A stretch of 64,000 nt of DNA from an uncultured Planctomycetia bacterium (GTDB lineage: Bacteria > Omnitrophota > Gorgyraeia > VGKH01 > JBHPFN01), in the NCBI GenBank assembly GCA_964406665.1, contig CAYOSQ010000003.1, forward strand, positions 186,558 to 250,557, written 5' to 3'. The position numbers and the translations under genes are program-made. The stretch's first letter is position 1, and every line of letters starts with the position of its first letter. The notes below the pieces were generated by a model that was not told the DNA's origin, made no database searches, and worked only from the letters and a program-made list of their open reading frames with translations. Positions 8,375 through 37,708 of the stretch are shown here, piece after piece.

Positions 8375-8475
8375 TGTATTCTATTTCCACATCTTTCCTT
8401 TAAATACAGCAGAATATCAAATTACGGATTTTTCTCTTATTTTGTGCTATACTTATTAAAATAAAGTAGTATAGC

Positions 8476-8512
8476 CTATGTTTTAGCAGGCTAGGAAACA
8501 TAGGTATTTTTT
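8476..8512 (+). terminator. Rho-independent terminator after fabZ
   Basis: cctatgttt-tagcaggctagg-aaacatagg hairpin followed by tattttttt. Confidence 0.7.
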
Positions 8513-8557
8513 TGCATTTTTTTATAGAATCGGTTATAAAAAAATATTGGTGCATAA

Positions 8558-11500
8558 ATGATTATTTTTATTGCTGTTTCAGGAGTTGTCGGCTTAGGGA
8601 TAGTTGCATATGTCTTAACTATGCCCCAGAAGCCGAAAAAAAAGATAAAGCGACAATTGCCGCAGTCGCAGGTTTCTGAAGACCAAAGGATTGTCGGTTT
8701 AGAAAATAAAATTAGCAGCCTGCAGCAAGAACTGGAAAAGGCTGGTTTTGAAAATGCCAGAGCAAAAAAAGAAGCAGAAGACGCTAAGCAAAAAGAAGCT
8801 GAATTAGAGAAAGAACTTGCCAGGCGAAAAGAGTGGGTAGAGAAGGGTCAGACAGATGTAGAAGCTGCGAAGGAAAGATTGCCTGAATTAGAGGCAACTG
8901 TAAAAGAGAAAGAAAAAAGGCTTGAGCAGGAGTTTTCTAAGAATGTTTTACAGGGTAAAGAGCTGCGTCACACCCAAGAAGAGCTTGAAGCTTCCCAGAA
9001 TGAAAACAAGAAAAAAGAAGACGAAATTACAAAACTTAAAAGAGAAATAGAAGGAAAGCATAATGAAATCAAAGGCAACATTGAAGAAATTAGATCTCAG
9101 CGTAATGCAGTAGATGAGTTAAAGAAGAAACAGGAGCAAAGCGAGTGGATTTCTAAAGATGAATATAATAAACTTAAAAAACGTTACGAAGAATTGCAAC
9201 GTCAAATTTTTACGGCCAAAAGGCAGATCGAATTAAAAGAAGAAAAAATCAATGAAGTTGATCTTGAGAGGATGAAGTATAAGAGTCGACTGTTCAGCTT
9301 AGAACGAGAGACTGGAAAAGTTTCTCAAGAGCAACAGGAGCAGGTTCAAGAGGAAGAGCAGAAGCAGCAAGAGCCTAAGGAAGCTGTAGCTGAAGCTGAA
9401 GAAAAACCACCTGCTGGTCAATCAGTTGAAGAAAAGCCAGCTGGAGAAAAAACCGCTGAAGAAGCAAAGGTTGAGGAAAAGTCTCAGGTAGAAGAAGCAA
9501 AACCGACCGAAGCAAAGCCGGCCGGAGAAAAAACCGCTGAAGAAAAACCAGCTGATGAGAAACCCGCCGAAGAAACCAAGCCAGCAGAAGATGAAAAGCT
9601 ATCTGCCGATCAATCAGCTGAAGAAAAACCAGCTGAAGAGGTACAGGCTGACGAAAAGCCTCAAGTTGAAGAGGTAAAGTCTGCGGAAGAAACTCAGCCA
9701 GAAGAGAAGGTTGAGGAAGCCCCGCCTGCACCTATAAAGAAGGCATCTGATGAAGAGATAGCTGAAATAAATAAAAAATTATCCCAGGTAAGAAATATCG
9801 GAATTATGGCCCATATTGATGCCGGTAAGACAACTTTGACTGAAAGAATATTATTTTACACCGGGATTACTCATAAGATTGGCGAGGTTCATGACGGTGA
9901 AGCCAAGATGGATTGGATGAAGCAAGAGCAGGAACGCGGTATCACAATTACCTCAGCTGCTACAACATGCTATTGGAAAGATTCCCGGATAAATTTGATC
10001 GATACTCCCGGACACGTTGATTTTACTGTTGAAGTTGAGCGCAGCCTGCGTGTTTTAGACGGAGCTGTAGCAGTATTTTGTGCAGTCGGAGGAGTGGAAG
10101 CCCAGTCAGAAACAGTCTGGAGACAATCGGAAAAATATATTGTTCCTAAACTAGCATTCATAAATAAAATGGATAGAATGGGAGCAGATTTTTACAAGGT
10201 ATATAAAGATATAGAGGAAAGATTACAGGCAAATCTTGTTCCTCTGCAGATTCCCATCGGTGCAGAAGATAAATTCCGCGGCATGATTGATTTGCTTGAG
10301 ATGAAGGCAATTATTTTTGATGATGATTCTCAGGGTAAAGAATTCAAGATTGAAGAAATCCCCGAAGATCTTAAGCAGAAGGCAGATGAATATCGTCATA
10401 TTTTAGTTGAGAAGGCCTGTGAGTGTGATGATGTTTTAATGAAGAAGCATCTTGAAACAAAGGATGATATTTCTAAAGAGGAGCTTATTGCTGCAATACG
10501 TAAAGGCACGGTTGCCACAAAAGTTATCCCGCTATTGTGTGGAACAGCACTTAAGAATAAGGGCGTTCAGCAAGTTCTTGACGCTGTGATTAATTTCTTG
10601 CCGTCTCCAGCAAATCTTCCACCGGTTGAAGGAACTGACCCAGATGATGCTGAAAAAAAGATTATGAGAAAACCGGATGCCGGCGAAGCTTTTTCTGCAT
10701 TAGCCTTTAAAGTTCAGTCTGACCCGCATATCGGAAAGCTCGTTTATGTAAGAGTTTATTCAGGAATACTATCTTCAGGTACATATATTTACAATGTCAC
10801 CAAAGGCAAAAAAGAACGCGTAGGAAGAATAGTGCGTATGCATGCAAATGAGAGAAGTAACTGTGATGAAATTCATGTTGGAGAGATCGCAGCTGTTGTT
10901 GGTTTAAACTATACAGCCACCGGGGATACTCTTTGCGATGCAGATGGTCAGGTTATTCTTGAATCAATCGAGTTTCCAGAGCCGGTTGTATCATCTTGTA
11001 TTACTCCGGTAAGCCGGAAAGATTCTGATAAATTAAGCAAGGCTTTGATTAAATTGGCTGAGGAAGATCCAACGTTTACTGTTAAGACAGATCGAGATAC
11101 TAAAGAGACTATTTTGTCCGGGATGGGTGAGTTACACTTAGAAATTATTGCAGATAGACTTAAAACCGAATTTAAGGTAGAGGCAGAAATAAGCAGGCCC
11201 GAAGTTGCCTACAGAGAAACTGTTACAGTTGAAGTTACTGAAGAATATAAACACGTTAAGCAGTCAGGTGGTAGAGGTCAATATGCTCATACTGTTATGG
11301 AGATTTCTCCTGCAGAATCAGGTGCTGGGTTAGTATTTAAGGATAGCATAAAAGGTGGAGTTATTCCTAGTGGCTATATTCCTTCTTGTGAAAAAGGAGT
11401 CTGCGCTATTATGGAAAGAGGTATTTTAGCCGGATATCCTGTTGTTGATATTAATATTAATTTAATCGATGGTTCACATCATGATGTTGACTCATCGGAT

Positions 11501-11866
11501 ATTGCATTTAAGATTTGTGCTGGAGAGTGTTTCCGTGGAGGGTTTAAGAAAGCTACTCCTGTTTTGCTTGAGCCGTTCATGAAGTTAGAAGCATTAGTTC
11601 CGGAAGAATACGTAAGCAGTATCGTAGGATATATCTGCTCTAAAAGAGGAAAGATTATGAACATGGACGCTAAAGGAAATCAGAAGATAATTCATGCTGA
11701 AGCTCCTTTGGCTGAGATGTTTGGATATGCTGCATCATTTCGTTCTTTAAGTAGTGGCCGGGCAACTTGCTCTATGGAGTTTGCCAGGTATTCTCAGGTT
11801 CCTGCAGAAATTGCCAATAAGGTAATAGAAGAAAGACAAAAAAAGAAGGAAGAAAAGTCAGAATAA
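8558..11866 (+). CDS. fusA: Elongation factor G with a ~400-aa N-terminal extension (TM helix, coiled coil, acidic EKPA-rich linker)
   Basis: One uninterrupted ORF. Residues 1-21 are hydrophobic, ~40-300 are heptad-like K/E-rich, and ~300-400 are a low-complexity [12 protein letters not shown] linker. A complete EF-G follows ([28 protein letters not shown], through the C-terminus). No in-frame ATG or RBS lies at the canonical EF-G start. Confidence 0.75.
9400..9730 (+). repeat. In-frame low-complexity repeats encoding the EKPA-rich linker
   Basis: ggagaaaaaaccgctgaagaa occurs at 9443 and 9524, an 81-bp period, inside purine-rich gaa/aaa/cca codon tracts. Confidence 0.5.
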
Positions 11867-12118: not shown

Positions 12119-13615
12119 ATGAAGAGAGTAATGTTCATAGTTGTTTTAATGCTGCTGGTTTCTCAAGCATTTGTAACTGCAGGAGAAATTCGCGAGGTTA
12201 CTGTTGGTGCGATAAGCTATCTTAGCTTAGAATACCCTGGTAGTTTTGCTGACCGCATTACTCTTCTACAAGAGAAGATTGATAGTGCGTTGACTAATTC
12301 TGAAGGATTTAATCTAGATTTGATCTTTGAGCCAGAGTATACGTTAGTACGCAGTCATTATTCTTCGAGTGATCCTTCTATTGTTGAGATTATTGAAAAT
12401 GGACCAGGAGATTATAGTGTTTCTTCTATTGGCACATTAGAAAGTGATCTTGTGGTAGATCATATTAATACTTGGTTGATAGAGCGTGCTCAAGAGCACC
12501 ACGTTAATTTCTTTACTAATGTTCATGAAAGAGTAGAGTATGAGCCTGGACAATATGCTCATGGTATAACTGGAATAATAATTAATCATCTGGGTAATAT
12601 TGCTGGGATTAAGCGCAAGATAGAGTTTCATCCTACAGAACAAATGCAGCAGATTGTCGGACCCACAATCAATAGTTTTACGCTTTTGAATCAAGAGGGG
12701 AAGTCTTTTGTTGTGTTGCCATTTATTTGTGCAGACCTCTGGACAACCGAGACACTTAATTGGTATGCGCAGATGCTTCATGATAATAATGCTAAGCCTG
12801 CAGATATTGTAATACATTCAGTAGCAATGGGTGATTGGTTGTATCATCAATTGTTTTTCGATATTCAAGATGGAACATTTGATCCGGATAATCCTCCAGT
12901 GGATATGTATGATTGGTTTTGGAATGAAACAGTAGAGCCAACTTTAATACAACACTATATGCAACAGGAAAAATTAATAAAGTCGATAAACAGTTATTAC
13001 TTCGCAACTGATCGGGTAGGTAATGATGAATTTGGTTCAAACACCGGAGCGTTCGAATTAATTTCTTTTCCTTTGGGACCTAATCCATTTTCTTTAGAAG
13101 ACTATTTATTTACAGATGATTATCTTATTGCCAAAGTGGATATATATTATCCTTCTGGCGGTGGAGGATGTTTCTTATCTGGTACGCCGATTCTTATGGC
13201 TGACGGAACTAAGAAATCAATTGAGAAGATAAAGATAGGAGATAGGGTCTTGGCTTTTGATGAGGAGTCGGGAGATTTAAAAGAAGATGTTGTAAAAGAG
13301 TTCTTTGTGCACACTACGCATGATTATCTTTTAATCAATAATTATTTAAGAGTCACTAAGAATCATCCTGTATTTTCAAACGGAGAGTGGGTTGAGATTG
13401 GAATCTTAAAAGTAGGAGATACCTTAACAGGTTCACAAGGCAAACCTATAAAGATATCATCAATTAGAGAAATTAATCATCCGGATATCGATATCCCGAT
13501 ATATAACTTAGAAGTCAATCCGTATCATACATATATTGCTGGTGGAATTATAGCACATAATAAACCACCCAAAAAGAAAGTGGCTGATTCTTTGGCAGAT
13601 CCTCCAGAAGAATAA
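12119..13615 (+). CDS. Secreted protein with a putative CN-hydrolase-like N-domain and a C-terminal Hint (bacterial intein-like) autoprocessing domain
   Basis: It starts with a signal peptide. The C-terminal ~140 aa begin GGGG-CFLSGTPILMADG and end IIAHN, the Hint/intein N- and C-splice blocks. The N-domain carries E, K and C in the nitrilase-superfamily order (FEPEY, KRKIEFH, ICADLW), a weak assignment. Confidence 0.7.
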   Translation: MKRVMFIVVLMLLVSQAFVTAGEIREVTVGAISYLSLEYPGSFADRITLLQEKIDSALTNSEGFNLDLIFEPEYTLVRSHYSSSDPSIVEIIENGPGDYSVSSIGTLESDLVVDHINTWLIERAQEHHVNFFTNVHERVEYEPGQYAHGITGIIINHLGNIAGIKRKIEFHPTEQMQQIVGPTINSFTLLNQEGKSFVVLPFICADLWTTETLNWYAQMLHDNNAKPADIVIHSVAMGDWLYHQLFFDIQDGTFDPDNPPVDMYDWFWNETVEPTLIQHYMQQEKLIKSINSYYFATDRVGNDEFGSNTGAFELISFPLGPNPFSLEDYLFTDDYLIAKVDIYYPSGGGGCFLSGTPILMADGTKKSIEKIKIGDRVLAFDEESGDLKEDVVKEFFVHTTHDYLLINNYLRVTKNHPVFSNGEWVEIGILKVGDTLTGSQGKPIKISSIREINHPDIDIPIYNLEVNPYHTYIAGGIIAHNKPPKKKVADSLADPPEE

Positions 13616-23879: not shown

Positions 23880-24314
23880 ATGTTTTACGGTGAATATAAA
23901 CATACGATTGACCGAAAAGGGCGGATTGTCCTTCCTTCCAAATTTCGTGAATCGGCTAAAGTCGGATTCGTGGAAAAATTCTATATTACCCGCGGTTTAG
24001 ATAAATGTCTTTTTATGTTTGCTGAAGACGAATGGCGAACACAGGAACAGAAATTTAAAACAATGTCTTTTACCAAACAGGAATCTAGAAAGTTTAACCG
24101 TCTTTATTTTTCTGGTGCAGTTGAAATTATTCCTGATGGTCAGGGAAGAATATTACTACCGGTATATTTAAAAGATTTTGCCGATATAAAGAGAGACGTC
24201 GTCATCATCGGAGTCTCTAACCGAATTGAAATTTGGAGTAAAAAGTTATGGGAAGATTTTTATGCTTCCTCAAAAGATTCTTTTGAGGACATAGCGGAGA
24301 AACTAATTGAATAG
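23880..24314 (+). CDS. mraZ: Transcriptional regulator MraZ
   Basis: Duplicated MraZ domains (DRKGRIVLP), first gene of the dcw cluster. Confidence 0.9.
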   Translation: MFYGEYKHTIDRKGRIVLPSKFRESAKVGFVEKFYITRGLDKCLFMFAEDEWRTQEQKFKTMSFTKQESRKFNRLYFSGAVEIIPDGQGRILLPVYLKDFADIKRDVVIIGVSNRIEIWSKKLWEDFYASSKDSFEDIAEKLIE

Positions 24315-25206
24315 TATGGCTATAATGCACAAACCAGTAATGATACAAGAGACAATGGAGAACCTAAATCTTAGGCCAGGTCAGACTGTGCTCGATTGTA
24401 CTTTAGGTACCGGCGGACATGCAGAAGAAATTTTAAAGTGTATCACTCCGGGAGGTAAACTAATCGCAATTGATAGGGATAAAGATTCTATTGATTTAGC
24501 AGCTGAGAGATTAGGCCGGTTTGAAGGTTCTTTTGAACTTATCTGTGACGACTTTAGAAATATCGACAGCATAATGAGAACTGCGGAAATTGAAAAAGTT
24601 GACGCCATATTTTTTGACTTAGGGATTTCTAGTTATCAACTTGAAAACCCTGAGAGAGGATTTAGTTTTATGAGAGAAGGTCCTTTGGATATGCGCATGG
24701 ATAGGAGTAGTTATATTTCAGCTTATGATCTTATCAATTCTCTTTCTGAGACAGAGCTCTCAGGAATTTTGAGAACTTTCGGTCAGGAACGTTGGCATAA
24801 CCGTATCGCTAGAGTTCTTATAAGAGAGAGAAGCATAAGGCCGATAGCTACTACCAGAGAGCTTTCAGAAGTTGTTATGAAGGCTGTTCCACATGGCAGG
24901 GGTTATTCAAAAATTCATCCTGCAACAAGAACATTTATGGCTTTTCGTATCGCAGTAAATCGTGAACTGGAGGCATTAGATTCAGCGCTGAATAAAAGCA
25001 TTGGTTATCTTAAGAAAGGTGGCCGGATTGTAGCTATAGCATTTCATTCTTTGGAAGATAGGATTGTAAAAGTGAAATTCCGAACATGCTCTAAAGAAAA
25101 CCAATTGATCCTTTTAACAAAAAAGCCTTTAAGGGCAACACCAGAAGAAATGCACGATAATGCTCGCTCTCGTAGCGCCAGGCTAAGGGCGGCTGAAAGG
25201 ATATAG
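24307..25206 (+). CDS. rsmH: 16S rRNA (cytosine1402-N4)-methyltransferase
   Basis: DCTLGTGGH and DLGISS motifs. Confidence 0.9.
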   Translation: MNSMAIMHKPVMIQETMENLNLRPGQTVLDCTLGTGGHAEEILKCITPGGKLIAIDRDKDSIDLAAERLGRFEGSFELICDDFRNIDSIMRTAEIEKVDAIFFDLGISSYQLENPERGFSFMREGPLDMRMDRSSYISAYDLINSLSETELSGILRTFGQERWHNRIARVLIRERSIRPIATTRELSEVVMKAVPHGRGYSKIHPATRTFMAFRIAVNRELEALDSALNKSIGYLKKGGRIVAIAFHSLEDRIVKVKFRTCSKENQLILLTKKPLRATPEEMHDNARSRSARLRAAERI

Positions 25207-25596
25207 ATGCGACTATCGAGATTTTTGAATTTGTTGTTGATTGTAACTGTAATGGCGTTGGTTTTTGTGCAGTTGCAGGTTGAGATAGTCAAGCTTGCCT
25301 ATGCTTGCAAAGACGAAGAAACTTCTATGAATAAGTTGCTTGATGATAAGGAAATATTGATGTATAATATCCATAAGTTAGAGTCAGCGGACAACATAGG
25401 GCAGATTCTTCTTTGCAAAGATTCAGATTTGAATTTTATCGAAAAGAGCCAACTGGCCGAGCTAAGGTTACCTGTGGGCTCAGGAAATAATTTCACTTAT
25501 CCGTCTGGAGGATTGAAGGCCAAGAGGCAGAACTTCGTTGCCAGACTTTTTAGCCTAAAATCACAGGCAGAAGCTACCGAAAGACTAAACAAATAA
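25207..25596 (+). CDS. ftsL: Cell division protein FtsL-like
   Basis: Single TM helix plus coiled coil, in the position between rsmH and ftsI. Confidence 0.6.
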   Translation: MRLSRFLNLLLIVTVMALVFVQLQVEIVKLAYACKDEETSMNKLLDDKEILMYNIHKLESADNIGQILLCKDSDLNFIEKSQLAELRLPVGSGNNFTYPSGGLKAKRQNFVARLFSLKSQAEATERLNK

Positions 25597-25602
25597 AATA
25601 TT

Positions 25603-27285
25603 GTGTATATCAGAAAGTATAAATTCCGCCTCCAGGCGGTTTTTGTCCTCGTTTTATTCTCTCTAATCTTCCTTTTTGCAAAACTCATACTCATTCAAAT
25701 TTTCAAAGCTGATTATTTAGCTGGAATTGCCAAAAAACAGCACAATTTACTTCTAGAATTAAAACCTGATAGAGGCAATATCTATGATCGTAACATGCAC
25801 CCGCTATCATTAAATGTTCCATCACAATCTATGTATGTTGTTCCAGGCGAAGTAAAGAACAAAGAATCAGTAATTAAACAGTTTTCTAAACTACTGGGAT
25901 TAGATAAAGATTTCTTGCACGATAGATTAAATAGGAAGAAGTCTTTTATCTGGTTGGCAAGGAAATTGTCTCAGGATAAATATTTAGCGGTAAAAAGCCT
26001 GGGTATTAAAGGTATCGGCTTTAGAGAAGAGAGCAGCCGTTATTACCCTAATGGGCATCTAACTTCGCATGTAATAGGCTTTACCGGCATAGATCATTTT
26101 GGACTCGAAGGGCTTGAAAGACATTTTGATAAATATCTTAAAGGTGAATCTGGATGGTGTTTTATTATACGAGACGCTAAGCAGCAAGGATTGTTGTTGG
26201 AAAACGAACTGTTTCCTCCTAAAGATGGATATGATTTAGTTTTAACTATTGATGAGAATATCCAGTATATTGTAGAAAGAGAGCTTAATTGGGGTATAGA
26301 AAAATTTAAAGCCAAAGGAGCAACGTTAGTAATGCTTGATCCTAAAACAGGAGAAATTTTAGCAATGGCTAACAGGCCTACCTACGATCCAAATAAGCTA
26401 ACAAGTTCACCAAAGGATTACAGACGTAATAGAGCAGTAACAGATTTCTTTGAACCAGGTTCTGTGTTTAAGATTGTAACTGCATCTGCTGCCTTAGAAG
26501 AAGGAGCCGTAACAGAAGAAGACGAATTTTTCTGCGAGAATGGTGAATACCGAGTTGCAAATCATATTTTACATGATCATAGACCACATGGAACTTTAAC
26601 TTTCAGAGAAGTTATTGAGCAATCCAGCAATATCGGAGTTTGCAAAGTCGCACAGCTTATCGGTCCTAACTCAATTTATAAATACATTAAGCTTTTTGGC
26701 TTTGGTGCTTTAACTGGCGTTGATTTGCCCGGTGAGGTAATCGGCATAACAAAGAAACCTTCTGTTTGGTCTAAGACTTCTATATCTGCAATTCCTATGG
26801 GGCAAGAAGTTACTGTAACAGCCCTGCAGCTTGTTAGGGCGATTTCTATAATAGCTAATGATGGAATAAGCATGAAGCCTTATGTTGTTAAAAAGATCAT
26901 GGACAAAAAAGGTGAACTTATAAAAGAGTTTTCTCCTGTTGAGACAGGAAGAGCTATTTCTTCAGATACTGCAAAGCGCATGCAAGATATTTTAACCGGT
27001 GTTGTGGAAAGAGGAACGGGACGTTGGGGTAAGCTAAAAGGTATTAATATTGCCGGTAAAACAGGAACTGCTCAAAAAGTTGTAGATGGGATGTATTCTC
27101 ATAGCAAGTTTATGGCAACTTTTATTGGATTTGTTTATGATGAAGAAGGACCAATTATCGCTATGTCAGTTGTGTTTGATGAGCCCAGGACTACGCATTT
27201 TGGCGGTACTGTTTCTGCTCCTGTATTTAAACGGATTGCTAAAGATACATTACGTTATTTAGAAAACAAAGAAAGAAGTAGATAG
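25603..27285 (+). CDS. ftsI: Peptidoglycan D,D-transpeptidase (PBP3)
   Basis: SVFK, SSN and KTGT transpeptidase motifs. Confidence 0.9.
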   Translation: MYIRKYKFRLQAVFVLVLFSLIFLFAKLILIQIFKADYLAGIAKKQHNLLLELKPDRGNIYDRNMHPLSLNVPSQSMYVVPGEVKNKESVIKQFSKLLGLDKDFLHDRLNRKKSFIWLARKLSQDKYLAVKSLGIKGIGFREESSRYYPNGHLTSHVIGFTGIDHFGLEGLERHFDKYLKGESGWCFIIRDAKQQGLLLENELFPPKDGYDLVLTIDENIQYIVERELNWGIEKFKAKGATLVMLDPKTGEILAMANRPTYDPNKLTSSPKDYRRNRAVTDFFEPGSVFKIVTASAALEEGAVTEEDEFFCENGEYRVANHILHDHRPHGTLTFREVIEQSSNIGVCKVAQLIGPNSIYKYIKLFGFGALTGVDLPGEVIGITKKPSVWSKTSISAIPMGQEVTVTALQLVRAISIIANDGISMKPYVVKKIMDKKGELIKEFSPVETGRAISSDTAKRMQDILTGVVERGTGRWGKLKGINIAGKTGTAQKVVDGMYSHSKFMATFIGFVYDEEGPIIAMSVVFDEPRTTHFGGTVSAPVFKRIAKDTLRYLENKERSR

Positions 27286-27291
27286 TTAACA

Positions 27292-28776
27292 ATGAAATTA
27301 AGAGAGTTAATACCCATATTGGTTATCAAAGAAAAAAAGAAATTTCTGGATTTGAATATTTCCGGAGTAACTTGTGATTCTAGGTTTGTTAAGAAAAATT
27401 TTATATTTGTGGCAATTAGAGGAACAGATGCCAACGGAGAGAAATTTATTGATCAGGCAATTAAAAATGGTGCGAAAGTTATAATTTTAAGAAGTAAATC
27501 GAATAAAATCAAAGCAGCAGTTTGTTTCGGTGTATTATTTATTGAAGTTAAAAGTCCACGCAAAACACTTTCTGAACTTTCTGCAAAAATATGTGCAAAT
27601 CCATCTAGTAAAATCAAGGTTATCGGTATAACCGGTACAAACGGTAAGACCACAGTATCTTTTCTAATAGAGTCAATATTGAAGCGTGCTGGTTTTTCAA
27701 CTGGTCTTTTGGGCACAATAAAATACAAATCCGGAAAAAAAGTACAAAAATCTTCTAATACTACTCCGGGGCCAGAATGCGTGCAATCTCTTTTGGCAAA
27801 GATGGTAAGAGAAAAAACAGATTATTGCATTATGGAAGTATCATCTCATGCGCTTGATCAAGACAGAGTGGCAGATGTGGATTTTAGATCAGCAATATTT
27901 ACAAATCTTACCAGAGATCATTTAGATTACCATAAAACTTTTAGTAAATATCTGTTAGCAAAATCAAAATTATTCAAGTGTCTTAGAAAATCATCAAAGG
28001 CATTTATTAATTTAGATAGTCCTTCTGCAGGAAAAATAGTAAAAGGCACACCAGCCAAAATTACTACCTATGGCTTAACTGAGAATTGCGACATAAAGGC
28101 AAAAGATGTTGAACTTAGCTTCTGGGGCATTATCTGTAACATAAGTACACACCAGGGAAGTTTTCCTATAAAGACGAAATTAATCGGTGTGCATAATTTA
28201 TATAACATTTTGGCAGCAGTAAGTTTCTGTTTGAAGGAAGGTATAGATTCTGACATAATAAAGGATACTTTGGTTAACTTTCGGGGAGTTCCGGGTAGGC
28301 TTGAACCGGTTGAATGCGGCCAGCCGTTTAAGGTATTTATTGATTACGCCCATACTGATGATGCATTAAAGAATGTGTTGGAAAGTCTAGCAATAATTGA
28401 TAAAAGAAAAATTATTGTTGTGTTTGGTTGTGGTGGAGATCGAGATAAAACTAAGCGACCTAAAATGGGCAAAGTCGCAAGCGAACTTGCTGATGAATTT
28501 ATCTTAACTAACGATAATCCGCGTAGCGAGGTTCCCAGGAAAATTGTAAAAGATATTGAAAAGGGGATTCCTAAAAAGTTTAAAAATTATTGTGTAATTT
28601 TAGATAGGGCTAAAGCGATAAAAAAAGCAATGCTTAGGGCCAAGAAAAGTGATGTAGTTTTAATAGCCGGTAAAGGTCATGAAAATTATCAGGTTATGAA
28701 GGATGGAAAGTTTTTGTTCAGTGATAAAAAAGAAACAAAACGCATACTTAAATGTTTAAAACAGAAGAAATCTTAA
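27292..28776 (+). CDS. murE: UDP-MurNAc-L-Ala-D-Glu--2,6-diaminopimelate ligase
   Basis: GITGTNGKTT; the DNPRSE motif indicates meso-DAP specificity. Confidence 0.9.
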   Translation: MKLRELIPILVIKEKKKFLDLNISGVTCDSRFVKKNFIFVAIRGTDANGEKFIDQAIKNGAKVIILRSKSNKIKAAVCFGVLFIEVKSPRKTLSELSAKICANPSSKIKVIGITGTNGKTTVSFLIESILKRAGFSTGLLGTIKYKSGKKVQKSSNTTPGPECVQSLLAKMVREKTDYCIMEVSSHALDQDRVADVDFRSAIFTNLTRDHLDYHKTFSKYLLAKSKLFKCLRKSSKAFINLDSPSAGKIVKGTPAKITTYGLTENCDIKAKDVELSFWGIICNISTHQGSFPIKTKLIGVHNLYNILAAVSFCLKEGIDSDIIKDTLVNFRGVPGRLEPVECGQPFKVFIDYAHTDDALKNVLESLAIIDKRKIIVVFGCGGDRDKTKRPKMGKVASELADEFILTNDNPRSEVPRKIVKDIEKGIPKKFKNYCVILDRAKAIKKAMLRAKKSDVVLIAGKGHENYQVMKDGKFLFSDKKETKRILKCLKQKKS

Positions 28777-30137
28777 AAGCAACTAGCGGAAAAATTATCA
28801 GCGGGAATGCTAATATCAGTATAAAAGGTATTTCTACGGATACAAGAACCATAAAGCCTGGTGAAATTTTCTTGGTGTTAAGCGGAAAAAACTTTGACGG
28901 GCATAATTTTATTAAAGCTGCGTTAATGAAAGGTGCTTGTGGTGTAATGGTAGAAAAAAATCCTAAGTTTAAATTGCCCGATAGATTTTTGTTGATTAAG
29001 GTAAAAAGTACGCTTGATGCTTTAGGGGCAATTGCAAACCTTCACCGTAAGCGTTTTAACATAAAAATAATTGCAATTACCGGAAGCAACGGAAAAACTA
29101 CAGCTAAGGATATGGCGGCACATTTGCTCTCTAGAAAATATAAGGTTTTGAAAACTGAAGGAACTAAAAATAATCAGATAGGAGTTCCCCAGACTTTATT
29201 GAAATTAAATAAGAGTTTTGATGTTGCTGTTTTAGAATTAGGCACAAACCGTTACGGCGAAATAGAAGCACTTTCTAAAATTGTTATGCCGGATATCGGC
29301 ATAATCACGAATATAGCCCTATCTCATATTAAATGCTTGAAAAATTTAGCCGGTGTGTATAGAGAGAAGATTTCTTTGTGTAAAGGCTTAAAGAAAAAAG
29401 GATGTTTAATTTTCAATGCTGATGATAAATACTTAAGAAATATCAAAAAACTAAAAAGGATAAACAAGAAACTCCCTTTTACAATAAATGAGAAAAGCAA
29501 ATTCAAAGCAAGCAGAATTAAAAAAGAAAAAAGCAGTCTCAGTTTTTTACTTAATGGAAAAATTCGTCTTAAGATAAATTCTTTGGCAGAGCATAATATT
29601 TATAATGCACTTGCTGTAGTGGCATCTGTTCGAGAATTGGGAGTATCTTATAAAGAGATTAAATTAATTCTAAATGAATTCCGCTTTCCTCAGGGAAGGG
29701 TTTCATCAACTAATTTAAAGAAAGTAAGTATTGTTGATGACACGTATAACTCAAATCCGCTGTCTTTAAAAAGCTCTATAGATTTACTCTGTCAATATAA
29801 TGGCAGAAGAAAAATATTAGTCTGTGCAGATATGTTAGAGTTAGGTGTTCAGTCTCGAACGCTTCATTCTGCAATTGGTAAAAAAATCGCAAATTCTAAT
29901 ATTGATATTTTGTTTACCCTGGGAAATTTGTCTAAAGAAATTCATCGTGCAGCGAAGAAGAGATCAAGAGGTTATGAGCAGATCAATCATTGCCGCAGCC
30001 ACAGTGATGTAGTCGATAAGCTGGTTAAAATATTGAAATCTAATGATGTTATACTGGTAAAGGGTTCTCGGTCAATGAAAATGGAAAAAGTTATTGAAGG
30101 GCTTAAGCAAAAACTTAAGAAAAATAAGGCGAGGTAA
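28752..30137 (+). CDS. murF: UDP-MurNAc-tripeptide--D-alanyl-D-alanine ligase
   Basis: Mur ligase motifs (ITGSNGKTT), positioned after murE. Confidence 0.9.
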   Translation: MFKTEEILKATSGKIISGNANISIKGISTDTRTIKPGEIFLVLSGKNFDGHNFIKAALMKGACGVMVEKNPKFKLPDRFLLIKVKSTLDALGAIANLHRKRFNIKIIAITGSNGKTTAKDMAAHLLSRKYKVLKTEGTKNNQIGVPQTLLKLNKSFDVAVLELGTNRYGEIEALSKIVMPDIGIITNIALSHIKCLKNLAGVYREKISLCKGLKKKGCLIFNADDKYLRNIKKLKRINKKLPFTINEKSKFKASRIKKEKSSLSFLLNGKIRLKINSLAEHNIYNALAVVASVRELGVSYKEIKLILNEFRFPQGRVSSTNLKKVSIVDDTYNSNPLSLKSSIDLLCQYNGRRKILVCADMLELGVQSRTLHSAIGKKIANSNIDILFTLGNLSKEIHRAAKKRSRGYEQINHCRSHSDVVDKLVKILKSNDVILVKGSRSMKMEKVIEGLKQKLKKNKAR

Positions 30138-30139
30138 GA

Positions 30140-31228
30140 ATGTTATATTATTTGTTATATCCTTTAAGAGACTTGTTTATTGGTTTTAATGTTTTCCGCT
30201 ATATTACTTTCCGTTCTGCAATGGCGGTAGTAACTACTTTTTTGTTAAGCGTTATCATCGGACCGTTTATTATTAAGAAATTAACTGCTTTTGGTATATG
30301 CCAGCAAGTGAGAAAAGACAAGGATAATATTTCTTATCCTGAACATCAGCATAAACAAGGTACTCCTACAATGGGTGGGATTATAATACTTTTAAGTATT
30401 TTTGTCGCTGTTTTGCTTTGGGCTGATATCAAGAATATTTATATACAGCTTACGCTTTTTACCAGTGTTTGGTTAGGTTTGCTGGGATTTATTGATGATT
30501 ATATTATGATTAAAAATAAACGCTCTAAGGGATTAACTGCCCGGGCAAAATTGTTCTGGCAGGCGGCCTTAGGTGTTATTATCGGTACGATTCTGTATTT
30601 GAATCCAGAATTTAGCACTACACTTGACGTTCCTTTCTTTAAAAATATTATTTTTGATCTTGGTATATTATTTATTCTTTATACTGTTATAGTTTTACTC
30701 AGTACTTCAAATGCTGTAAATTTAACTGACGGATTGGACGGCTTAGCCATCGGTTGTGTGATTGCGGTTGCGGTTAGTTTTAGCATATTAAGCTATATAA
30801 CCGGACACGTTAAATTAAGCGAATATTTATTAGTTCCCTATATTGCTGATGTCGGTGAGTTAGCTGTTTTTTGTTCAGCGATTATTGGTGCTGGATTAGG
30901 ATTTCTTTGGTTTAACTGTCATCCTGCAGAGGTATTTATGGGTGATGTAGGTTCTTTATCTTTAGGCGGAATGTTGGGGGTAATCGCGATTTTTATCAAT
31001 AAAGGTCTTTTGCTAATTATTGTAGGAGGAATTTTTGTCGCTGAGGCATTTTCTGTAATACTTCAGGTAGGTTCGTTTAAGCTTAGAAAAAAAAGAATTT
31101 TTAAAATGTCACCTTTGCATCATCATTTTGAAAAAATGGGCTGGGATGAATCTAAGGTTATTATTCGGTTTTGGATTGTGGCTTTGATACTTGCTTTGAT
31201 AACATTAGCTACTTTAAAGATTCGTTAA
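30140..31228 (+). CDS. mraY: Phospho-N-acetylmuramoyl-pentapeptide transferase
   Basis: Polytopic membrane protein with NAVNLTDGLDGLA and HHHFE motifs. Confidence 0.95.
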   Translation: MLYYLLYPLRDLFIGFNVFRYITFRSAMAVVTTFLLSVIIGPFIIKKLTAFGICQQVRKDKDNISYPEHQHKQGTPTMGGIIILLSIFVAVLLWADIKNIYIQLTLFTSVWLGLLGFIDDYIMIKNKRSKGLTARAKLFWQAALGVIIGTILYLNPEFSTTLDVPFFKNIIFDLGILFILYTVIVLLSTSNAVNLTDGLDGLAIGCVIAVAVSFSILSYITGHVKLSEYLLVPYIADVGELAVFCSAIIGAGLGFLWFNCHPAEVFMGDVGSLSLGGMLGVIAIFINKGLLLIIVGGIFVAEAFSVILQVGSFKLRKKRIFKMSPLHHHFEKMGWDESKVIIRFWIVALILALITLATLKIR

Positions 31229-31231
31229 ATT

Positions 31232-32494
31232 ATGGATTTAAAAAATAAAAAAGTTACAATTTTTGGTTTGGGAAAAAGTGGATTAGATTTAGTTTTGCTG
31301 CTTGATGGTTTGGGAGCAAAAGTTTATATTACTGACGAGAAAGACAGCCTTCAGGCACGAGAGAATGCAGAAAAGATTCAAGGAAAGGCTAAAGTCGAAA
31401 TAGGAAAACATAGCGAGGCATTTATTGAGGGAAGTGATTTAGTGGTGCTAAGTCCCGGAGTGCGACAGGATTTACCAATTCTTTTAAAAATTAAAGAAAA
31501 AGGAATTATGGTTATTGGAGAGATCGAATTAGCTGCTTCTCTTTGCAAGGGAACTATTGTTGCTATAACCGGAACTAACGGAAAAAGCACTGTTACTACT
31601 TTGGCATCTGAAGTGCTTAAACTTTCAGGAAAAAATGTATTTCTCTGCGGTAATATCGGCATACCATTCAGTCGCTGCATACCTAAAATTCAGAAGGATG
31701 ATATTGCTTGTCTAGAGGTGAGTTCCTTTCAGCTTGAAACCACTAAGAATTTTAAACCAAAGGTCGCAGCATTTTTAAACTTTAGTAGAAATCATCTAAA
31801 TCGGCACAAAGACATGGATGAATATTTTCAGGCTAAAAAAATGATATTTGCTAATCAGGACAAAACTGATTGGGCTGTATTGAATGAGCGCGATGAAATT
31901 GTCAAGAATATTGCTGGAGAAATAAAGTCCCAGGTTGTGTATTTTAACAAGTCTAACGAAGATCCTGGTAAATTTTCTAATCCTAATTATTCTGCAGTCA
32001 GAGCAATAGCTTCGATCTTTGGAATAAGCAGTGATGAGTGCAATAAAGTTTTCAATAATTTTAAGGGATTAGAGCACCGTATGGAATTTGTCAGTACAGT
32101 TAAAGGAATTGATTTTATTAATGATTCTAAGGCTACAACAGTTGTTGCTGCTCTTTGGGCGCTTAGAAGTGTTAGTAAGCCGGTTGTGATGATTGTCGGT
32201 GGTCGAGATAAGGGAGGGGATTTTACAGTTATTAAAGATTTGGCAGTTGAGAAAGTTAAAGAATTGATTGTCATTGGTGAGGCAAAAGAAAAAATAAAAT
32301 CAGCTTTAAAAGATTTTCTTAATATAAAAGAATCTCAGAGTTTTCAAGAAGCGGTAAAGCTAGCTTTTGCCGACGCTAAAGAAAATGAATGTGTTTTGCT
32401 TTCTCCTATGTGTGCTAGTTTTGATATGTTTTCAAGTTTTGAAGAAAGAGGGAAAGTATTTAAGGAATTAGTAAGCGAGTTAGCCTATGCGTAA
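31232..32494 (+). CDS. murD: UDP-N-acetylmuramoylalanine--D-glutamate ligase
   Basis: ITGTNGKST Mur ligase motif, in dcw gene order. Confidence 0.9.
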   Translation: MDLKNKKVTIFGLGKSGLDLVLLLDGLGAKVYITDEKDSLQARENAEKIQGKAKVEIGKHSEAFIEGSDLVVLSPGVRQDLPILLKIKEKGIMVIGEIELAASLCKGTIVAITGTNGKSTVTTLASEVLKLSGKNVFLCGNIGIPFSRCIPKIQKDDIACLEVSSFQLETTKNFKPKVAAFLNFSRNHLNRHKDMDEYFQAKKMIFANQDKTDWAVLNERDEIVKNIAGEIKSQVVYFNKSNEDPGKFSNPNYSAVRAIASIFGISSDECNKVFNNFKGLEHRMEFVSTVKGIDFINDSKATTVVAALWALRSVSKPVVMIVGGRDKGGDFTVIKDLAVEKVKELIVIGEAKEKIKSALKDFLNIKESQSFQEAVKLAFADAKENECVLLSPMCASFDMFSSFEERGKVFKELVSELAYA

Positions 32495-33575
32495 CACAAG
32501 AATATTTCTGGTTATGACAACTGCCGTATTGATTTGCATCGGCATTGTTATGATATATAGTTCTAGTAGTATTTTTTCCTGGAAAAACTTAAGCGAAAGT
32601 ACTTATTTTCTTAAAAGACACGTAATCTATATTATAGTAGGCTTGCTATCTAGTTTAGCAGTCATGGCAATTGACTATCGTGTATTACAAAAATACTCAA
32701 GGGTAATTCTAGGAGTTGCCTTGTTGCTTCTGCTTTTGGTTTTGATACCGGGGATAGGTAGAGAGATTGGCGGAGCAAGAAGGTGGTTTAGATTTTTCGG
32801 CTTTAGCTTTCAGCCTTCAGAAATTGTCAAAATAGCATTTATAATTTATTTTGCAGACTTTCTCTCCCGTAAACAAAACCAGGTTAAGAATCTATTTCAC
32901 GGATTTGTTCCTGCTATGATAGTTATGGGAGTTATTGCTTTGGCGATATTATTGCAGCCGGATTTAGGTACTTCAATTGTTATTGTTGTTATAGGTTTTA
33001 CTATGTTTTTCTTAGCTGGTGGAAAAATAAAACATCTAGCAATTACTATTTTGTGTGCGCTGCCTGGTTTTTACTTTTTGATTTGGAATTCTTCCTATAG
33101 AAGAGCGCGTATAATTTCATTCTGGAATCCCTGGGCAGATCCTCAGGGAAGTGGTTTTCAACTTATCCAATCTCAGCTGGCCTTAGGCTCTGGAGGAATT
33201 TTTGGTGTCGGCTTAGGCCAGAGTAAACAGAAACTGTTTTATTTGCCCGCCGCTCATACAGATTTTATCTTTTCTATAATCGGAGAAGAAGGTGGGCTTA
33301 TTGGAACTTTATCAATGGTGATTATTTTTGCTCTTTTTTTGTGGCAGGTAGCTAGAATAGTTCGTCGGGCACCTGATAATTTTGGATATTTTACAAGCTG
33401 TGGAATATTTGTTATGTTAGCCTTTGAATCGATAGTTAATATGGGAGTTGCTACAGGAAGTTTACCCACCAAGGGATTACCTCTTCCGTTTATAAGTTAC
33501 GGGGGTTCAGCTTTGGTGATTGCAATGATGAGCGTTGCTTTATTGTTGAATATTTCAAGAACTAGGGAAATATGA
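32487..33575 (+). CDS. ftsW: Peptidoglycan glycosyltransferase FtsW (SEDS family)
   Basis: Ten-TM SEDS protein with the conserved AHTDFIFS block. Confidence 0.9.
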   Translation: MRNTRIFLVMTTAVLICIGIVMIYSSSSIFSWKNLSESTYFLKRHVIYIIVGLLSSLAVMAIDYRVLQKYSRVILGVALLLLLLVLIPGIGREIGGARRWFRFFGFSFQPSEIVKIAFIIYFADFLSRKQNQVKNLFHGFVPAMIVMGVIALAILLQPDLGTSIVIVVIGFTMFFLAGGKIKHLAITILCALPGFYFLIWNSSYRRARIISFWNPWADPQGSGFQLIQSQLALGSGGIFGVGLGQSKQKLFYLPAAHTDFIFSIIGEEGGLIGTLSMVIIFALFLWQVARIVRRAPDNFGYFTSCGIFVMLAFESIVNMGVATGSLPTKGLPLPFISYGGSALVIAMMSVALLLNISRTREI

Positions 33576-34657
33576 AAGTATTAATTGCATGTGGTGGTAC
33601 AGGTGGGCATGTTTTTCCCGCTATTGCTTTAGCCCAAGAGCTACAAAAGAAAGAAATTGAAATCCTTTTCTTGGGGACTAAGCGTAAAATGGATTCTTAT
33701 GTTTCCCAGAAAGGATTTAAATCAGTAAGTCTTGATATTACTGCGATTTCTTTTAGTTCAATAAAAAAATTATTAAGATCACTCTTAAAGCTTATAAAAG
33801 CAACATTAGATTCTTTTTCTTTATTGTTTAAGTTTAAACCTGATGTAGCAGTTGGTTTTGGCGGATATGTTTCTGGTCCAGTTATGTTTGCTGCTTATAT
33901 TATGCGTATACCTACGGTTATTCATGAGCAAAATGTAAAGCTCGGTAAGGCAAATTATATCTTATCTAAATTAGTTGATAATGTTGCTATAACTTTTGAG
34001 CAAAGCAGATGTTATGGAGCTCCCAAGAAATCCGTATTAACCGGCTGTCCCATAAGGAAGGAACTTCTACAAGTTGATGAAAGCAAAGCGTTAGATTATT
34101 TTGGTTTTAAGAAAGATGCCTTTACAGTATTTATTATGGGAGGAAGTCAGGGAAGTCACAAAATAAATAAAGAGTCTCTCAAGGCTTTTTCGAAATTTAA
34201 AGCAAAAAGCAATTTACAGGTTATTCACATATCCGGAAGTAGTGATTTTGAAATTGTTAAAGAAGAATATAAAAAAATAGGAATTAATGCTGAAACTTTC
34301 GAATTTTTTGATAAAATAGAATATGCTTATAGAGTTTCCGATCTTTTAATTGCTCGTGCGGGTGCATCAACGATATCTGAAGCAGTGGCATTCAATTTAC
34401 CTGCAGTTATTATTCCTTATCCATTTGCAGGAGGGCATCAGCTGTTGAATGCAAAATTCCTTTCTGATAAAGGTGCCGCAGTTTTGATTAAAGACAGTGA
34501 TTTATCAGAGAAATCTTTACTAAAGTATTTAGAAGAATTTTATTCAGATAGAGATAGCTTGCGGGAGTTAGAAAAAAGTTTAAAAAAGATTTCAGTGCTA
34601 GAAGCTGATAGGCTTTTATCTAAATTGATTTTAGAAGCGGGAGAAGTTAATGATTAG
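33572..34657 (+). CDS. murG: UDP-GlcNAc:undecaprenyl-PP-MurNAc-pentapeptide GlcNAc transferase
   Basis: GGTGGHVFPA N-terminus, GT28 family. Confidence 0.9.
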   Translation: MKVLIACGGTGGHVFPAIALAQELQKKEIEILFLGTKRKMDSYVSQKGFKSVSLDITAISFSSIKKLLRSLLKLIKATLDSFSLLFKFKPDVAVGFGGYVSGPVMFAAYIMRIPTVIHEQNVKLGKANYILSKLVDNVAITFEQSRCYGAPKKSVLTGCPIRKELLQVDESKALDYFGFKKDAFTVFIMGGSQGSHKINKESLKAFSKFKAKSNLQVIHISGSSDFEIVKEEYKKIGINAETFEFFDKIEYAYRVSDLLIARAGASTISEAVAFNLPAVIIPYPFAGGHQLLNAKFLSDKGAAVLIKDSDLSEKSLLKYLEEFYSDRDSLRELEKSLKKISVLEADRLLSKLILEAGEVND

Positions 34658-35432
34658 AAAAATATTCTTAGCAATCTTGGTTGTTTGTTTAGTGGCACCA
34701 GTTGTATTCTCTAAAGATAAAGAATGGGAAGTTAAAAAGAGCACGCATTTTATCGTCTATTATAAAGAAGCTCCCAAAGAATTTATCGAGAATATCATAG
34801 AGTCCGCAGAAGACTATTATCATTCTATTAGTAGTGAATTGGGTTTAAGAAGAAAGGATTACTGGCTCTGGGATGATAGAGCGAAAATATATATCCATAG
34901 CAATAAGGATGAGTACGTAAAAGCTTCCGGCCAGCCACATTGGTCAAGTGGCTCGGCACTTTATGAACTAAAGACCATTCATACATATCCTCTTGCTTCT
35001 GGTTTTTTTGATACATTGTTGCCTCATGAGTTGGGACATATAATTTTCAGAGAGTTTATTGGTTTTAGAAGAGATATCCCTATTTGGTTAGATGAGGGAA
35101 TTGCTATGTATCAGGAAAAAGCTAGGCGCTGGGGTTCAAATGATGTGGTTAAGAAAGCAATAAAAGATGGTAGTTTCATACCGCTTGATGAACTTTCAAA
35201 AATGAGATTGTGGTCTGGCTTAGGAGACGAGACGATTACTTTGTTTTATGCAGAGTCAACCAGTGTTGTTTATTTCCTTCTTCAAGAATATGGCAGGCAT
35301 AGTTTTATCAAATTTTGCAGAGAATTAAGAGACGGCAAAGAGCTGGAAGAGGCTTTTGATGATGCATATGTCCGTTTTGATACTTTTGAAGAACTTAATA
35401 CAGCTTGGGTAAGATATTTAGAAAATGAATAA
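34650..35432 (+). CDS. Secreted peptidase-MA-like (HExxH...E) protein
   Basis: Signal peptide, then HELGH with a downstream WLDEGIAMY block (gluzincin-type third ligand). Its placement between murG and murC is unusual. Confidence 0.55.
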   Translation: MIRKIFLAILVVCLVAPVVFSKDKEWEVKKSTHFIVYYKEAPKEFIENIIESAEDYYHSISSELGLRRKDYWLWDDRAKIYIHSNKDEYVKASGQPHWSSGSALYELKTIHTYPLASGFFDTLLPHELGHIIFREFIGFRRDIPIWLDEGIAMYQEKARRWGSNDVVKKAIKDGSFIPLDELSKMRLWSGLGDETITLFYAESTSVVYFLLQEYGRHSFIKFCRELRDGKELEEAFDDAYVRFDTFEELNTAWVRYLENE

Positions 35433-36804: not shown

Positions 36805-37708
36805 GCAAAAAGAGTCTTTGGCACATCACACTACTCTTAGAATAGGTGGTCCGGCAGCTGCATGGGTGGAACCAAAGGATCTTGAGGATTTGAAGGCTGT
36901 TGTTAAATTTGCCTATGATAAAAAGATTTCTTTGTTTTGTATTGGAGCAGGAAGTAATCTCCTTGTAGGCGATAAAGGTATAGACGGGATAATTGTAAAA
37001 CTAAATTCACCGTTTTTTAAGACAGTAGAGAAAATAAACAAAAATCATATTGTTGCATCAGGTGGAGCTCATCTTAAGGATTTAATAAGTTTCGCACACG
37101 GAAATTACCTTACTGGATGTGAATTTTTAATCGGTATTCCTGGTTCAATCGGTGGCGCATTAGCAATGAATGCAGGAATAAATATTTATTATAAAAGAAG
37201 ACGCAGGAAACATTACATTTCCGATATTGTAAAAGAAGTTACAGTAATGGATTTTCGAGGTCGGATAAGAACGTTGAAGAATAAGAATATCAGTTTTGGT
37301 TATAGAGCATCAAGTCTATCACATTTTATTGTGATTAGTGCGAAGTTTCTTTTGCATCAGGCAACAAAAATTGATATCAGGCGTGAAGAGAAACGATATT
37401 TAAACGCAAGAAAATCAACCAGCAATTTAAGATACCCAAATGCCGGTTGTGTGTTTAGAAATCCTGAACTAAATTCAGCATTTAAGTTAAGAGATTATTC
37501 ATTTTCTGCCGGATGGTTTATTGATCAGTGTGATTTAAAAGGCAAACGCATAAATGATGCTGCTATTTCCAATAAACATGCAAACTATATAGTTAACCGT
37601 GGTAAAGCTAAAGCTAAAGACGTGCTCTCGCTTATACAGTTGGTTCAGTGTACTGTAAAAAATAGGTTTAATATAGATTTAGTTTCGGAGATTAAAATTA
37701 TATGTTAA
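36758..37708 (+). CDS. murB: UDP-N-acetylenolpyruvoylglucosamine reductase
   Basis: HTTLRIGGPA FAD-binding motif. The ORF track starts at 36743; the ATG at 36758 overlaps murC less. Confidence 0.85.
   Translation: MSYYQALKKIIKGKIKQKESLAHHTTLRIGGPAAAWVEPKDLEDLKAVVKFAYDKKISLFCIGAGSNLLVGDKGIDGIIVKLNSPFFKTVEKINKNHIVASGGAHLKDLISFAHGNYLTGCEFLIGIPGSIGGALAMNAGINIYYKRRRRKHYISDIVKEVTVMDFRGRIRTLKNKNISFGYRASSLSHFIVISAKFLLHQATKIDIRREEKRYLNARKSTSNLRYPNAGCVFRNPELNSAFKLRDYSFSAGWFIDQCDLKGKRINDAAISNKHANYIVNRGKAKAKDVLSLIQLVQCTVKNRFNIDLVSEIKIIC

Follow-up and report, generated by a model that had tools for sequence, protein, structure and literature searches.

Elongation factor G (EF-G, FusA) is usually seen as a freely diffusing cytosolic factor, and location in the str operon is typical of its gene without being defining. 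The known second EF-G families include EF-G2 (NF009377/NF058620) and spdEFG1/2 of Spirochaetes, Planctomycetes and Deltaproteobacteria, for which Margus et al. 2011 is reportedly the source; we know of no described EF-G paralog with a membrane anchor. Two other proteins of the RNA and translation machinery offer the closest comparisons. RNase Y consists of an N-terminal transmembrane helix, a coiled-coil/disordered region (PF12072, RNase_Y_N) and catalytic domains, and FtsY, the receptor of the signal recognition particle (SRP), belongs to the SRP family of GTPases, targets ribosome-nascent chain complexes and carries an acidic N-terminal A domain. We analyzed a window of 64,000 nucleotides (nt) from an uncultured bacterium of the Omnitrophota (class Gorgyraeia; assembly GCA_964406665.1, contig CAYOSQ010000003.1, positions 186,558 to 250,557 of the forward strand), in which an open reading frame (ORF) with an ATG start at 8558..11866 encodes 1102 amino acids (aa) plus a stop codon. 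As judged from its sequence features, this gene encodes a second, catalytically intact EF-G, which is preceded in frame by a predicted membrane anchor, a coiled-coil stalk and an acidic linker. Positions below are those of the window, all features lie on the + strand, and residue numbers refer to the 1102-aa protein.

The EF-G core and its N-terminal extension

Residues 407-1094 matched TIGR00484, the NCBIfam EF-G equivalog, over model positions 6-690 of 691, with 1025.5 bits against a cutoff of 659.4. Pfam revealed the complete five-domain order G(+G')-II-III-IV-V, comprising the G domain with G' (residues 410-683, 9785..10606; PF00009, 2.7e-64), domain II (712-794, 10691..10939; PF22042 (EF-G_D2) and PF03144), domain III (806-879, 10973..11194; PF14492 (EFG_III), 1.8e-31), domain IV (881-999, 11198..11554; PF03764 (EFG_IV), 5e-41) and domain V (1002-1088, 11561..11821; PF00679 (EFG_C), 2.7e-26); residues 1-409 had no Pfam match. 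In Foldseek, the predicted model superposed on solved EF-G crystal structures with target TM-scores of up to 0.95. Upon alignment of 98 fused homologs, we found the G motifs (G1 AHIDAGKT, G3 DTPGH, G4 NKMD and G5 GTALKNKG, within 9785..10606), the catalytic histidine of DTPGH and both tip loops of domain IV to be invariant. These decoding-centre loops (KQSGGRGQY, residues 901-909, and GSHHDVDSS, residues 972-980, within 11198..11554) are intact in the window protein, and the invariant domain IV residues are Q902, G904, G905, G907, Q908, Y909, H911, D971, G972, S973, H975, D978, S979 and S980. It is strongly supported that the fused core is of the canonical type and keeps all sequence features for GTP hydrolysis and translocation. 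The matches to the EF-G2 models were below cutoff (NF009377, 489.1 versus 890 bits; NF058620, Bacteroidota EF-G2, 505.6 versus 1000), as was that to the Tet(M)/Tet(O)-type ribosome protection model (NF012153, 395.2 versus 775 bits). A previous sequence-only reading of this stretch had offered an EF-G2 or ribosome-protection paralog as an alternative; the notion of a second copy held, in that a normal 698-aa EF-G coexists in relatives, and membership in either class did not.

The extension opens with a predicted transmembrane helix at residues 2-21 (8561..8620), which showed a Kyte-Doolittle mean of 2.62 over 19 residues and was modeled as a helix by AlphaFold with a predicted local distance difference test (pLDDT) score of about 85. 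A K/R-rich basic juxtamembrane patch follows (residues 22-40, 8621..8677), and the family median net charge over residues 23-45 was +3. Because the basic cluster lies after the helix and no charge precedes it, the positive-inside rule would place the EF-G in the cytoplasm and the N-terminus outside, as in a signal anchor of the N-out/C-in type. A periplasmic orientation and a cleavable signal peptide were both rejected, since a basic n-region is absent before the helix, the hydrophobic stretch runs to a full 20 residues, and basic residues cluster on its C-terminal side.

The next component is a conserved coiled-coil domain (residues 41-251, 8678..9310), as evident from the conservation profile, the AlphaFold model, heptad periodicity and the ratio of nonsynonymous to synonymous substitution rates (dN/dS). 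AlphaFold predicted a continuous helix at residues 41-194, a kink at 195-199 centred on S195-E196-W197, and a further helix at 200-251. The first helix maintained an unbroken a/d heptad register, with a period-3.5 power of 25.5 in family-wide hydrophobicity against a 99th-percentile shuffle value of 5.0, and the second reached 9.3 against a shuffle value of 4.5. W93 was invariant in the 98 sequences, and K118, E121, F126, K128, V130, S195, W197, K200 and L206 were at least 90% conserved; the resulting motifs are EEL.RR.EW(93)V.K, KEKEL..EF.KNV and SEW(197)[IV].K.E[YF]NKL. The conserved tryptophan motifs of the stalk probably bind some partner. This N-terminal region, which we call the N-module, had no Pfam or NCBIfam family above cutoff in the window protein or in its stand-alone relatives, the only signals being sub-threshold coiled-coil noise (SMC, ATG16).

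Between the stalk and the EF-G lies an acidic, proline-rich, intrinsically disordered linker (residues 252-397, 9311..9748), recognized by pLDDT, composition, a tandem repeat and dN/dS. Its pLDDT was about 28 (range 25-34), and the same periodicity test revealed no heptad pattern in it. The family medians for this tail were a net charge of -14 and a proline content of 10.8%, versus 0.6% in the helical part, and in the window the linker is built of degenerate in-frame 15-nt (pentapeptide) repeats at 9394-9639, in 15.6 copies. The junction (residues 398-411, 9749..9790) comprises a short helix, placed by AlphaFold at residues 398-408 and entering the first G-domain strand, and what appears to be a retained ancestral EF-G N-terminal peptide without its methionine. 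In-frame ATG, GTG and TTG codons were absent from the 30 codons before R412 and the G domain, and the first in-frame ATG beyond the junction is that of the Met of GIMAH. The anatomy given by the sequence-only reading is largely confirmed: it had described a complete EF-G with motifs G1-G5 and domains II-V, an in-frame extension of about 400 aa opening with a hydrophobic helix (the EF-G begins at about residue 410), a native N-terminus joined without start codon or ribosome-binding site, and the GIMAH methionine as the in-frame ATG. Two lengths had to be revised; the K/E-rich coiled coil, whose nature agrees with the heptad periodicity, measures about 210 rather than about 250 aa, and the linker, whose repeats were correctly noted, about 146 rather than about 100 aa.

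The same arrangement was found widely. The exact window protein is encoded on 7 contigs from independent JGI, ENA and NCBI assemblies, and 117 of the 120 best-scoring protein clusters at 90% identity showed the same order of parts, with lengths of 985-1172 aa and a median extension of 341 aa. The sources of family members are named 'Candidatus Omnitrophica/Omnitrophota bacterium', and most Omnitrophota are ultra-small cells of about 0.2 µm (PMC10066038). An N-domain scan of JGI metagenomes gave 80 loci, which are biased toward one sub-lineage, because the scan relied on a six-sequence subgroup alignment (A3), the family-wide alignment (A2) being too divergent for patterns. At 51 of these loci the N-domain ORF enters the EF-G G1 motif in frame, and a transmembrane helix stands at the start of all 52 complete ORFs. 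A scan with the full-length alignment was keyed on universal G-domain peptides, and among the matches listed were mostly unrelated bacteria, L010, an Omnitrophota single-cell genome, being the useful one. Fused versions were also present in an Omnitrophota single-cell genome (SAG AM-311-N09; 1043 aa) and on the 1.52-Mb chromosome CP070797.1 (1051 aa). In close pairs, dN/dS (Nei-Gojobori) was 0.035 for the core, 0.11 for the transmembrane helix plus domain and 0.25 for the linker, values that are approximate as dS was high and near saturation. All parts of the fused protein appear to be under purifying selection, the core very strongly.

Could the fusion be a chimera, a frameshift, or a mis-called gene whose normal-length EF-G starts internally? 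We consider this almost certainly wrong. What speaks for it is that GenBank annotates 698-aa and 797-aa versions. The 698-aa proteins (MFA4987980.1 and MDD5500565.1) start with 'MSLSKVRNIGI', and this start is misplaced on an Ile codon, since the continuous ORF reads '...PRISLSKVRNIGI'; comparison of the trimmed proteins P0124 and P0126 with P0064 gave 698 aa as annotated against 1040 aa continuous. On CP070797.1 (L178 11692-14847), the gene is annotated as 797 aa with a start inside the linker, the true length being 1051 aa, and this call leaves a false 1-kb 'intergenic' gap that is the N-module. This error of the deposited annotation is systematic; it trims the genes to EF-G length, and the fusion is therefore invisible in those records. 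Of 37 complete fused genes, 24, including that of the window, lack a canonical start in frame over the 30 codons next to the G domain; in the remaining 13 the commonest 'start' is a conserved Leu codon at -4, and a Shine-Dalgarno-like motif occurs at the internal position in only 1 of the 37. At locus L007 the ATG of the long ORF overlaps the stop codon of the preceding gene, and the 400 upstream codons are under purifying selection with a conserved transmembrane helix and motifs. Many independent assemblies, the single-cell genome and the chromosome all show an uninterrupted reading frame, which disposes of the stop, frameshift or chimera that the sequence-only reading had thought possible, and the relatives that it proposed to inspect share the architecture. 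It is strongly supported by these sequences that the full-length fusion is the encoded product.

The N-module family and the short EF-G paralogs

The sequence-only reading had also proposed a search with the N-terminal part alone, and this search revealed that the coiled-coil region is a conserved domain that also exists as a free-standing protein. At about 18 of the 80 metagenome loci, ORFs of 226-398 aa contained only the transmembrane helix, the conserved domain and the acidic tail before a stop codon, with no EF-G within up to 10 kb. Eight of these stand-alone modules occupy the exact syntenic slot of the fused gene in sister genomes, IF3-L20-TrkA-TrkA-TrkH-x-PheS-PheT-RarA-[X]-PPIase-UvrD-DUF5981-NifU-...-RNase Y-YmdB, in which [X] is the slot. 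In an N-module tree rooted on distant relatives, the stand-alone forms nested at no fewer than four separate places inside the fused clade, which suggests that the EF-G moiety was lost repeatedly, at least four times, with the module being retained.

A profile of the domain run against a library of 1.84 billion proteins gave 363 representatives at E <= 1e-3, of which 59 were at E <= 1e-30; most matches were 210-460 aa long with the domain at residues ~45-250. Residues 2-251 of the window protein show all marks of the family, namely the transmembrane helix, the basic patch, a heptad domain of about 200 aa and the motifs ..RR.EW../..EF.KNV../..SEW[IV].K.E[YF]N.L... A distant family of about 225 aa has the same transmembrane helix and tryptophan-containing signature motifs without the acidic tail (L175 7001-7693, L176 7001-7678, L177 1113-1781), and its members lie in the order PAS/HisKA hybrid histidine kinase - Hpt - unknown - TPR protein - module - aminotransferase. 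By these sequence criteria, the N-module forms an autonomous family of membrane coiled-coil proteins that is so far uncharacterised. Its fusion to EF-G, a 'Rosetta stone' link, hints at a ribosome-related role for the family.

Some individual members deserve mention. At locus L162 (Ga0172375_10001784), an N-module of 272 aa stands alone in surroundings that are syntenic with those of the fused locus L153; further downstream is a 350-aa ORF of the same BLAST family, which may be an N-module paralog, as L162 has no EF-G core match. P0304 and P0318 are larger proteins that have a transmembrane helix at the N-terminus and in which the first half of the coiled-coil domain is repeated. Their C-terminus looks T2SSE_N/MshEN-type by eye, with a PilZ-like end in P0318, and they may be weak coiled-coil matches and not relatives.

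The EF-G moiety has its own paralogs. P0104 was the sole genuinely short close relative; it has an ATG of its own and an AGGAG ribosome-binding site, and its N-terminus is MARAIDLNRVRNIGI. A search seeded with it revealed a large EF-G family whose members measure about 698 aa and bear the label Omnitrophota. These short paralogs scored 1095-1108 bits on TIGR00484, and exactly ten residues, M[ASPT]R.I.L.KV, precede RNIGI in 114 of 119. An 1107-aa ORF upstream of P0104 was considered as a split N-module and rejected as unrelated. A neighbor-joining tree placed the fused cores (34 of 35) in one clade and the short cores in its sister clade, and the two jointly excluded 10 outgroup EF-Gs. Median core identities were 72% among fused, 77% among short, 68% between fused and short and 57-59% to outgroups, and the fused cores lay about 1.3 times further than the short ones from the common node. 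The fused EF-G is best read as a canonical-type copy duplicated inside Omnitrophota. A mixed case is P0035, from an NCBI contig of 4,465 bp, which has a typical N-module and an EF-G core that nests in the short-paralog clade with 76% identity to P0104; this mixture could be due to gene conversion between the paralogs or to chimeric assembly across the conserved G domain.

The short P0151 and the fused P0003 lie 1.6 kb apart on a single 34.8-kb contig, and the order short EF-G - SpoU methylase - peptidoglycan-binding protein - fused EF-G is also present on CP070797.1. As this arrangement is conserved in two divergent Omnitrophota genomes (L170 10001-16940 and L178 8001-14847), a local duplication is suggested. 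The fused junction follows the pattern ..P.P.I.L.KVRNIGI, versus M[ASPT]R.I.L.KVRNIGI in the short paralogs; the ancestral N-terminal peptide kept without its Met would be the footprint of an upstream ORF that read through into the duplicated fusA. Both paralogs were solitary genes in every context seen. An S12-S7-EF-G-EF-Tu operon has been reported in the class Gorgyraeia (bioRxiv 10.64898/2026.06.07.730766), so a third, str-linked EF-G copy may exist. Surveys that count fusA as a single-copy marker in Omnitrophota should heed this paralogy.

Possible roles of the tethered EF-G

The explanation that we tentatively prefer, with a confidence somewhat short of an even chance, is that the tethered EF-G is a membrane-side pool of translocase that arose when a duplicated EF-G was captured by an anchored coiled-coil module. 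As to the origin, the sequences strongly suggest that the EF-G gene of Omnitrophota duplicated, that one copy was captured by read-through from an upstream gene for a membrane-anchored coiled-coil protein, and that the EF-G moiety was later lost several times in some lineages, where it could be dispensed with because a normal soluble EF-G is also present. Two chains would pair through a coiled coil, presumably a parallel one because both N-termini sit in the same membrane, to form a stalk of about 23-30 nm. At ~0.15 nm per residue, helix 41-194 would span ~23 nm, with ~8 nm more if helix 200-251 continues it. The leash of 146 residues might add roughly 10 nm on average and up to ~50 nm when fully stretched, so that the EF-G heads would hover ~25-45 nm off the membrane, and the acidic character of the leash may help to keep it away from rRNA and anionic lipids. 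A standing pool of translocase at the membrane could then serve ribosomes engaged in co-translational insertion or secretion, its position set by the partner of the tryptophan motifs, and in a cell of ~0.2 µm most of the cytoplasm would remain within range of such a tether. Very long membrane-associated proteins are numerous in Omnitrophota (bioRxiv 10.64898/2026.06.07.730766), and for such a phylum an EF-G pool of this kind would plausibly be useful.

Several points weigh against this explanation or limit it. The anatomy is well supported, and the function is deduced from the anatomy only; the oligomeric state and the orientation of the stalk helix are predictions, and the transmembrane helix was called by hydropathy and AlphaFold and not by a dedicated topology predictor. 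The neighborhoods of the fused genes vary, and the contexts examined showed no link to Sec, SRP or YidC; those of the distant N-module family gave no functional clue, the neighbors not being translation genes. Repeated loss of the EF-G moiety indicates that a tethered EF-G is dispensable in some lineages. A short and a fused EF-G on the same contig were established in two genomes, that of the window not among them. The core and N-module trees are neighbor-joining trees without bootstrap support, and the dN/dS values are subject to the saturation stated above.

A bolder version, which we hold to be rather unlikely, is that elongation is spatially organized in these cells, with a dimeric membrane stalk presenting EF-G to docked ribosomes and the tryptophan motifs binding the translocon, the ribosome or another landmark. 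If true, this would be an elongation-factor station that sustains long co-translational export of giant surface proteins in ultra-small cells, the first translocase tethered to a membrane and a new level at which bacteria control translation, and the free-standing N-module would be a docking scaffold even where the EF-G has been lost.

Other uses of the tether can be envisaged. The tether might hold a spare EF-G away from bulk ribosomes or in an inactive state until proteolysis of the linker releases it on demand, for example upon host attachment. The long, exposed and poorly conserved linker (dN/dS 0.25) would be an easy protease target, and a soluble EF-G already meets basal needs. For E. 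coli LepA/EF4, storage at the membrane with release upon stress has reportedly been found. A higher ribosome content has been reported for host-attached Velamenicoccus archaeovorus (PMC10066038). Such a reserve is nevertheless quite improbable in our view, as a tether of 30-80 nm would hardly sequester anything in cells of 0.2 µm, and the linker has no conserved cleavage motif; the junction peptide is conserved but presents no obvious protease site. We also doubt strongly that the N-module is the primary membrane scaffold, with the EF-G serving as a GTP-dependent handle for ribosomes at a zone of host contact or secretion and not as a turnover translocase. That the module is autonomous, that it predates the fusion and is spread more widely, that its conserved surface motifs suggest a binding partner and that the fused core evolves ~1.3 times faster than the short paralog would agree with such a role. 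A passive handle, however, would be expected to lose its GTPase or domain IV constraints, and the invariant catalytic His, the G motifs, the domain IV loops and the core dN/dS of 0.035 fit a working translocase better.

The at least four independent losses of the EF-G moiety and the presence of a soluble EF-G would also be compatible with a neutral or decaying fusion, in which a redundant fusA duplicate joined its upstream neighbor by chance and is drifting to loss. We judge this to be very improbable, because the fusion persists throughout a deep and diverse clade whose fused cores are only 62-100% identical to each other, its layout and junction are conserved, and purifying selection extends over the core (0.035) and both parts of the extension (0.11 and 0.25).

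Other features of the window and comparison with known systems

The fused gene of the window is flanked by fabZ on one side and a gene for a Hint-domain protein on the other, outside the str operon, and no second translational GTPase was found in the 64-kb window. Other fused members occupy three further unrelated gene contexts, and the str operon (rpsL-rpsG-fusA-tuf) was not among these. Upstream of the fused gene (8475..8557), we noted by eye a hairpin, CCTATGTT...AACATAGG, followed by a T-run that may close the fab operon, a possible promoter, TTGCAT-17 nt-TATAAA, at 8512-8540, and TGGTG 5 nt ahead of the ATG. These signals are weak, were absent from the output of a consensus scan and serve as leads only; that scan, for promoters and terminators, was uninformative, with 9 promoter-like sites versus 8.3 expected and none of these at the junction.

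The product of the directly downstream gene (12119-13615) measures 498 aa and has a signal-like hydrophobic segment at its N-terminus and a Hint/PT-HINT (intein-like) domain at its C-terminus; in one sibling assembly (L003) this gene is frameshifted or split. A complete dcw cluster lies at 23880-40623 in the order mraZ-rsmH-(129-aa ORF, possibly ftsL)-ftsI-murE-murF-mraY-murD-ftsW-murG-peptidase_MA-murC-murB-ddl-ftsQ-ftsA, in which a peptidase_MA gene separates murG from murC. What comes after ftsA is not ftsZ but an ORF for a radical SAM protein at 41084, and a tubulin/FtsZ match was absent from the 40 ORFs scanned between 22,125 and 63,420. A 502-aa reverse transcriptase ORF (RVT_1) followed by five consecutive ORFs without a Pfam match (50014-53348) occupies 48258-53348, and this region could be a retron, a diversity-generating retroelement, a group II intron or an element of the defence type. 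At 53564-55661, the genes for an archease and the RNA ligase RtcB form a pair. Throughout the window (1-64000) all substantial ORFs are on the + strand, GC skew is positive in every 2-kb bin and GC content is 34-40%, which fits one long leading-strand segment of a replichore.

In the searchable full-text literature we found no description of a membrane-anchored EF-G. One candidate for prior art was rejected, as its mentions of 'EF-G' and 'membrane-anchored' refer to giant proteins and to EF-G genes in hypervariable regions (bioRxiv 10.64898/2026.06.07.730766). Within the literature searched, the fusion and the N-module family appear to be undescribed. A strongly constrained, membrane-wired EF-G across a phylum would challenge the picture of a freely diffusing factor, and it would offer a natural experiment on whether the local supply of factors limits translation at membranes.

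Upon comparison with canonical EF-G (FusA; TIGR00484), the fused protein was found to be similar in its five domains, its score above the cutoff, its retained motifs and its superposable fold, but it adds the 400-residue extension of transmembrane helix, coiled coil and acidic linker and has no start codon at the usual position. Moreover, the fused gene is solitary, lies outside the str operon and coexists with a normal short EF-G. It resembles EF-G2 and spdEFG in being an additional EF-G beside another one, suggesting sub-functionalisation, whereas it falls below the EF-G2 cutoffs and appears to have arisen by duplication of the canonical type within Omnitrophota.

The overall architecture is similar to that of RNase Y, in which a cytoplasmic enzyme of the RNA machinery is likewise mounted on a single N-terminal helix and a dimerising coiled coil. 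In related loci, a gene for RNase Y with PF12072 lies a few genes away, and PF12072 (RNase_Y_N) did not match residues 1-400 even at E <= 1, so the likeness is architectural only. In contrast to RNase Y, the stalk of the fused protein is longer, an acidic leash is added and the cargo is a translational GTPase and not a nuclease. FtsY is comparable as a translation-associated GTPase that is localised to the membrane by an acidic-rich N-terminal extension; the cargo of the fused protein, however, is the translocase itself, the anchor is a predicted true transmembrane helix with a coiled coil, and no homology to FtsY was detected. An analogy may also be drawn with the 'factor pool' of the ribosomal bL12/P-stalk, whose flexible acidic linkers raise the local concentration of translational GTPases (PMC7768734), as the linker of the fused protein may do. 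The ribosomal stalk recruits free factors to the ribosome, whereas the fused EF-G would itself be leashed, with the membrane as the fixed point.

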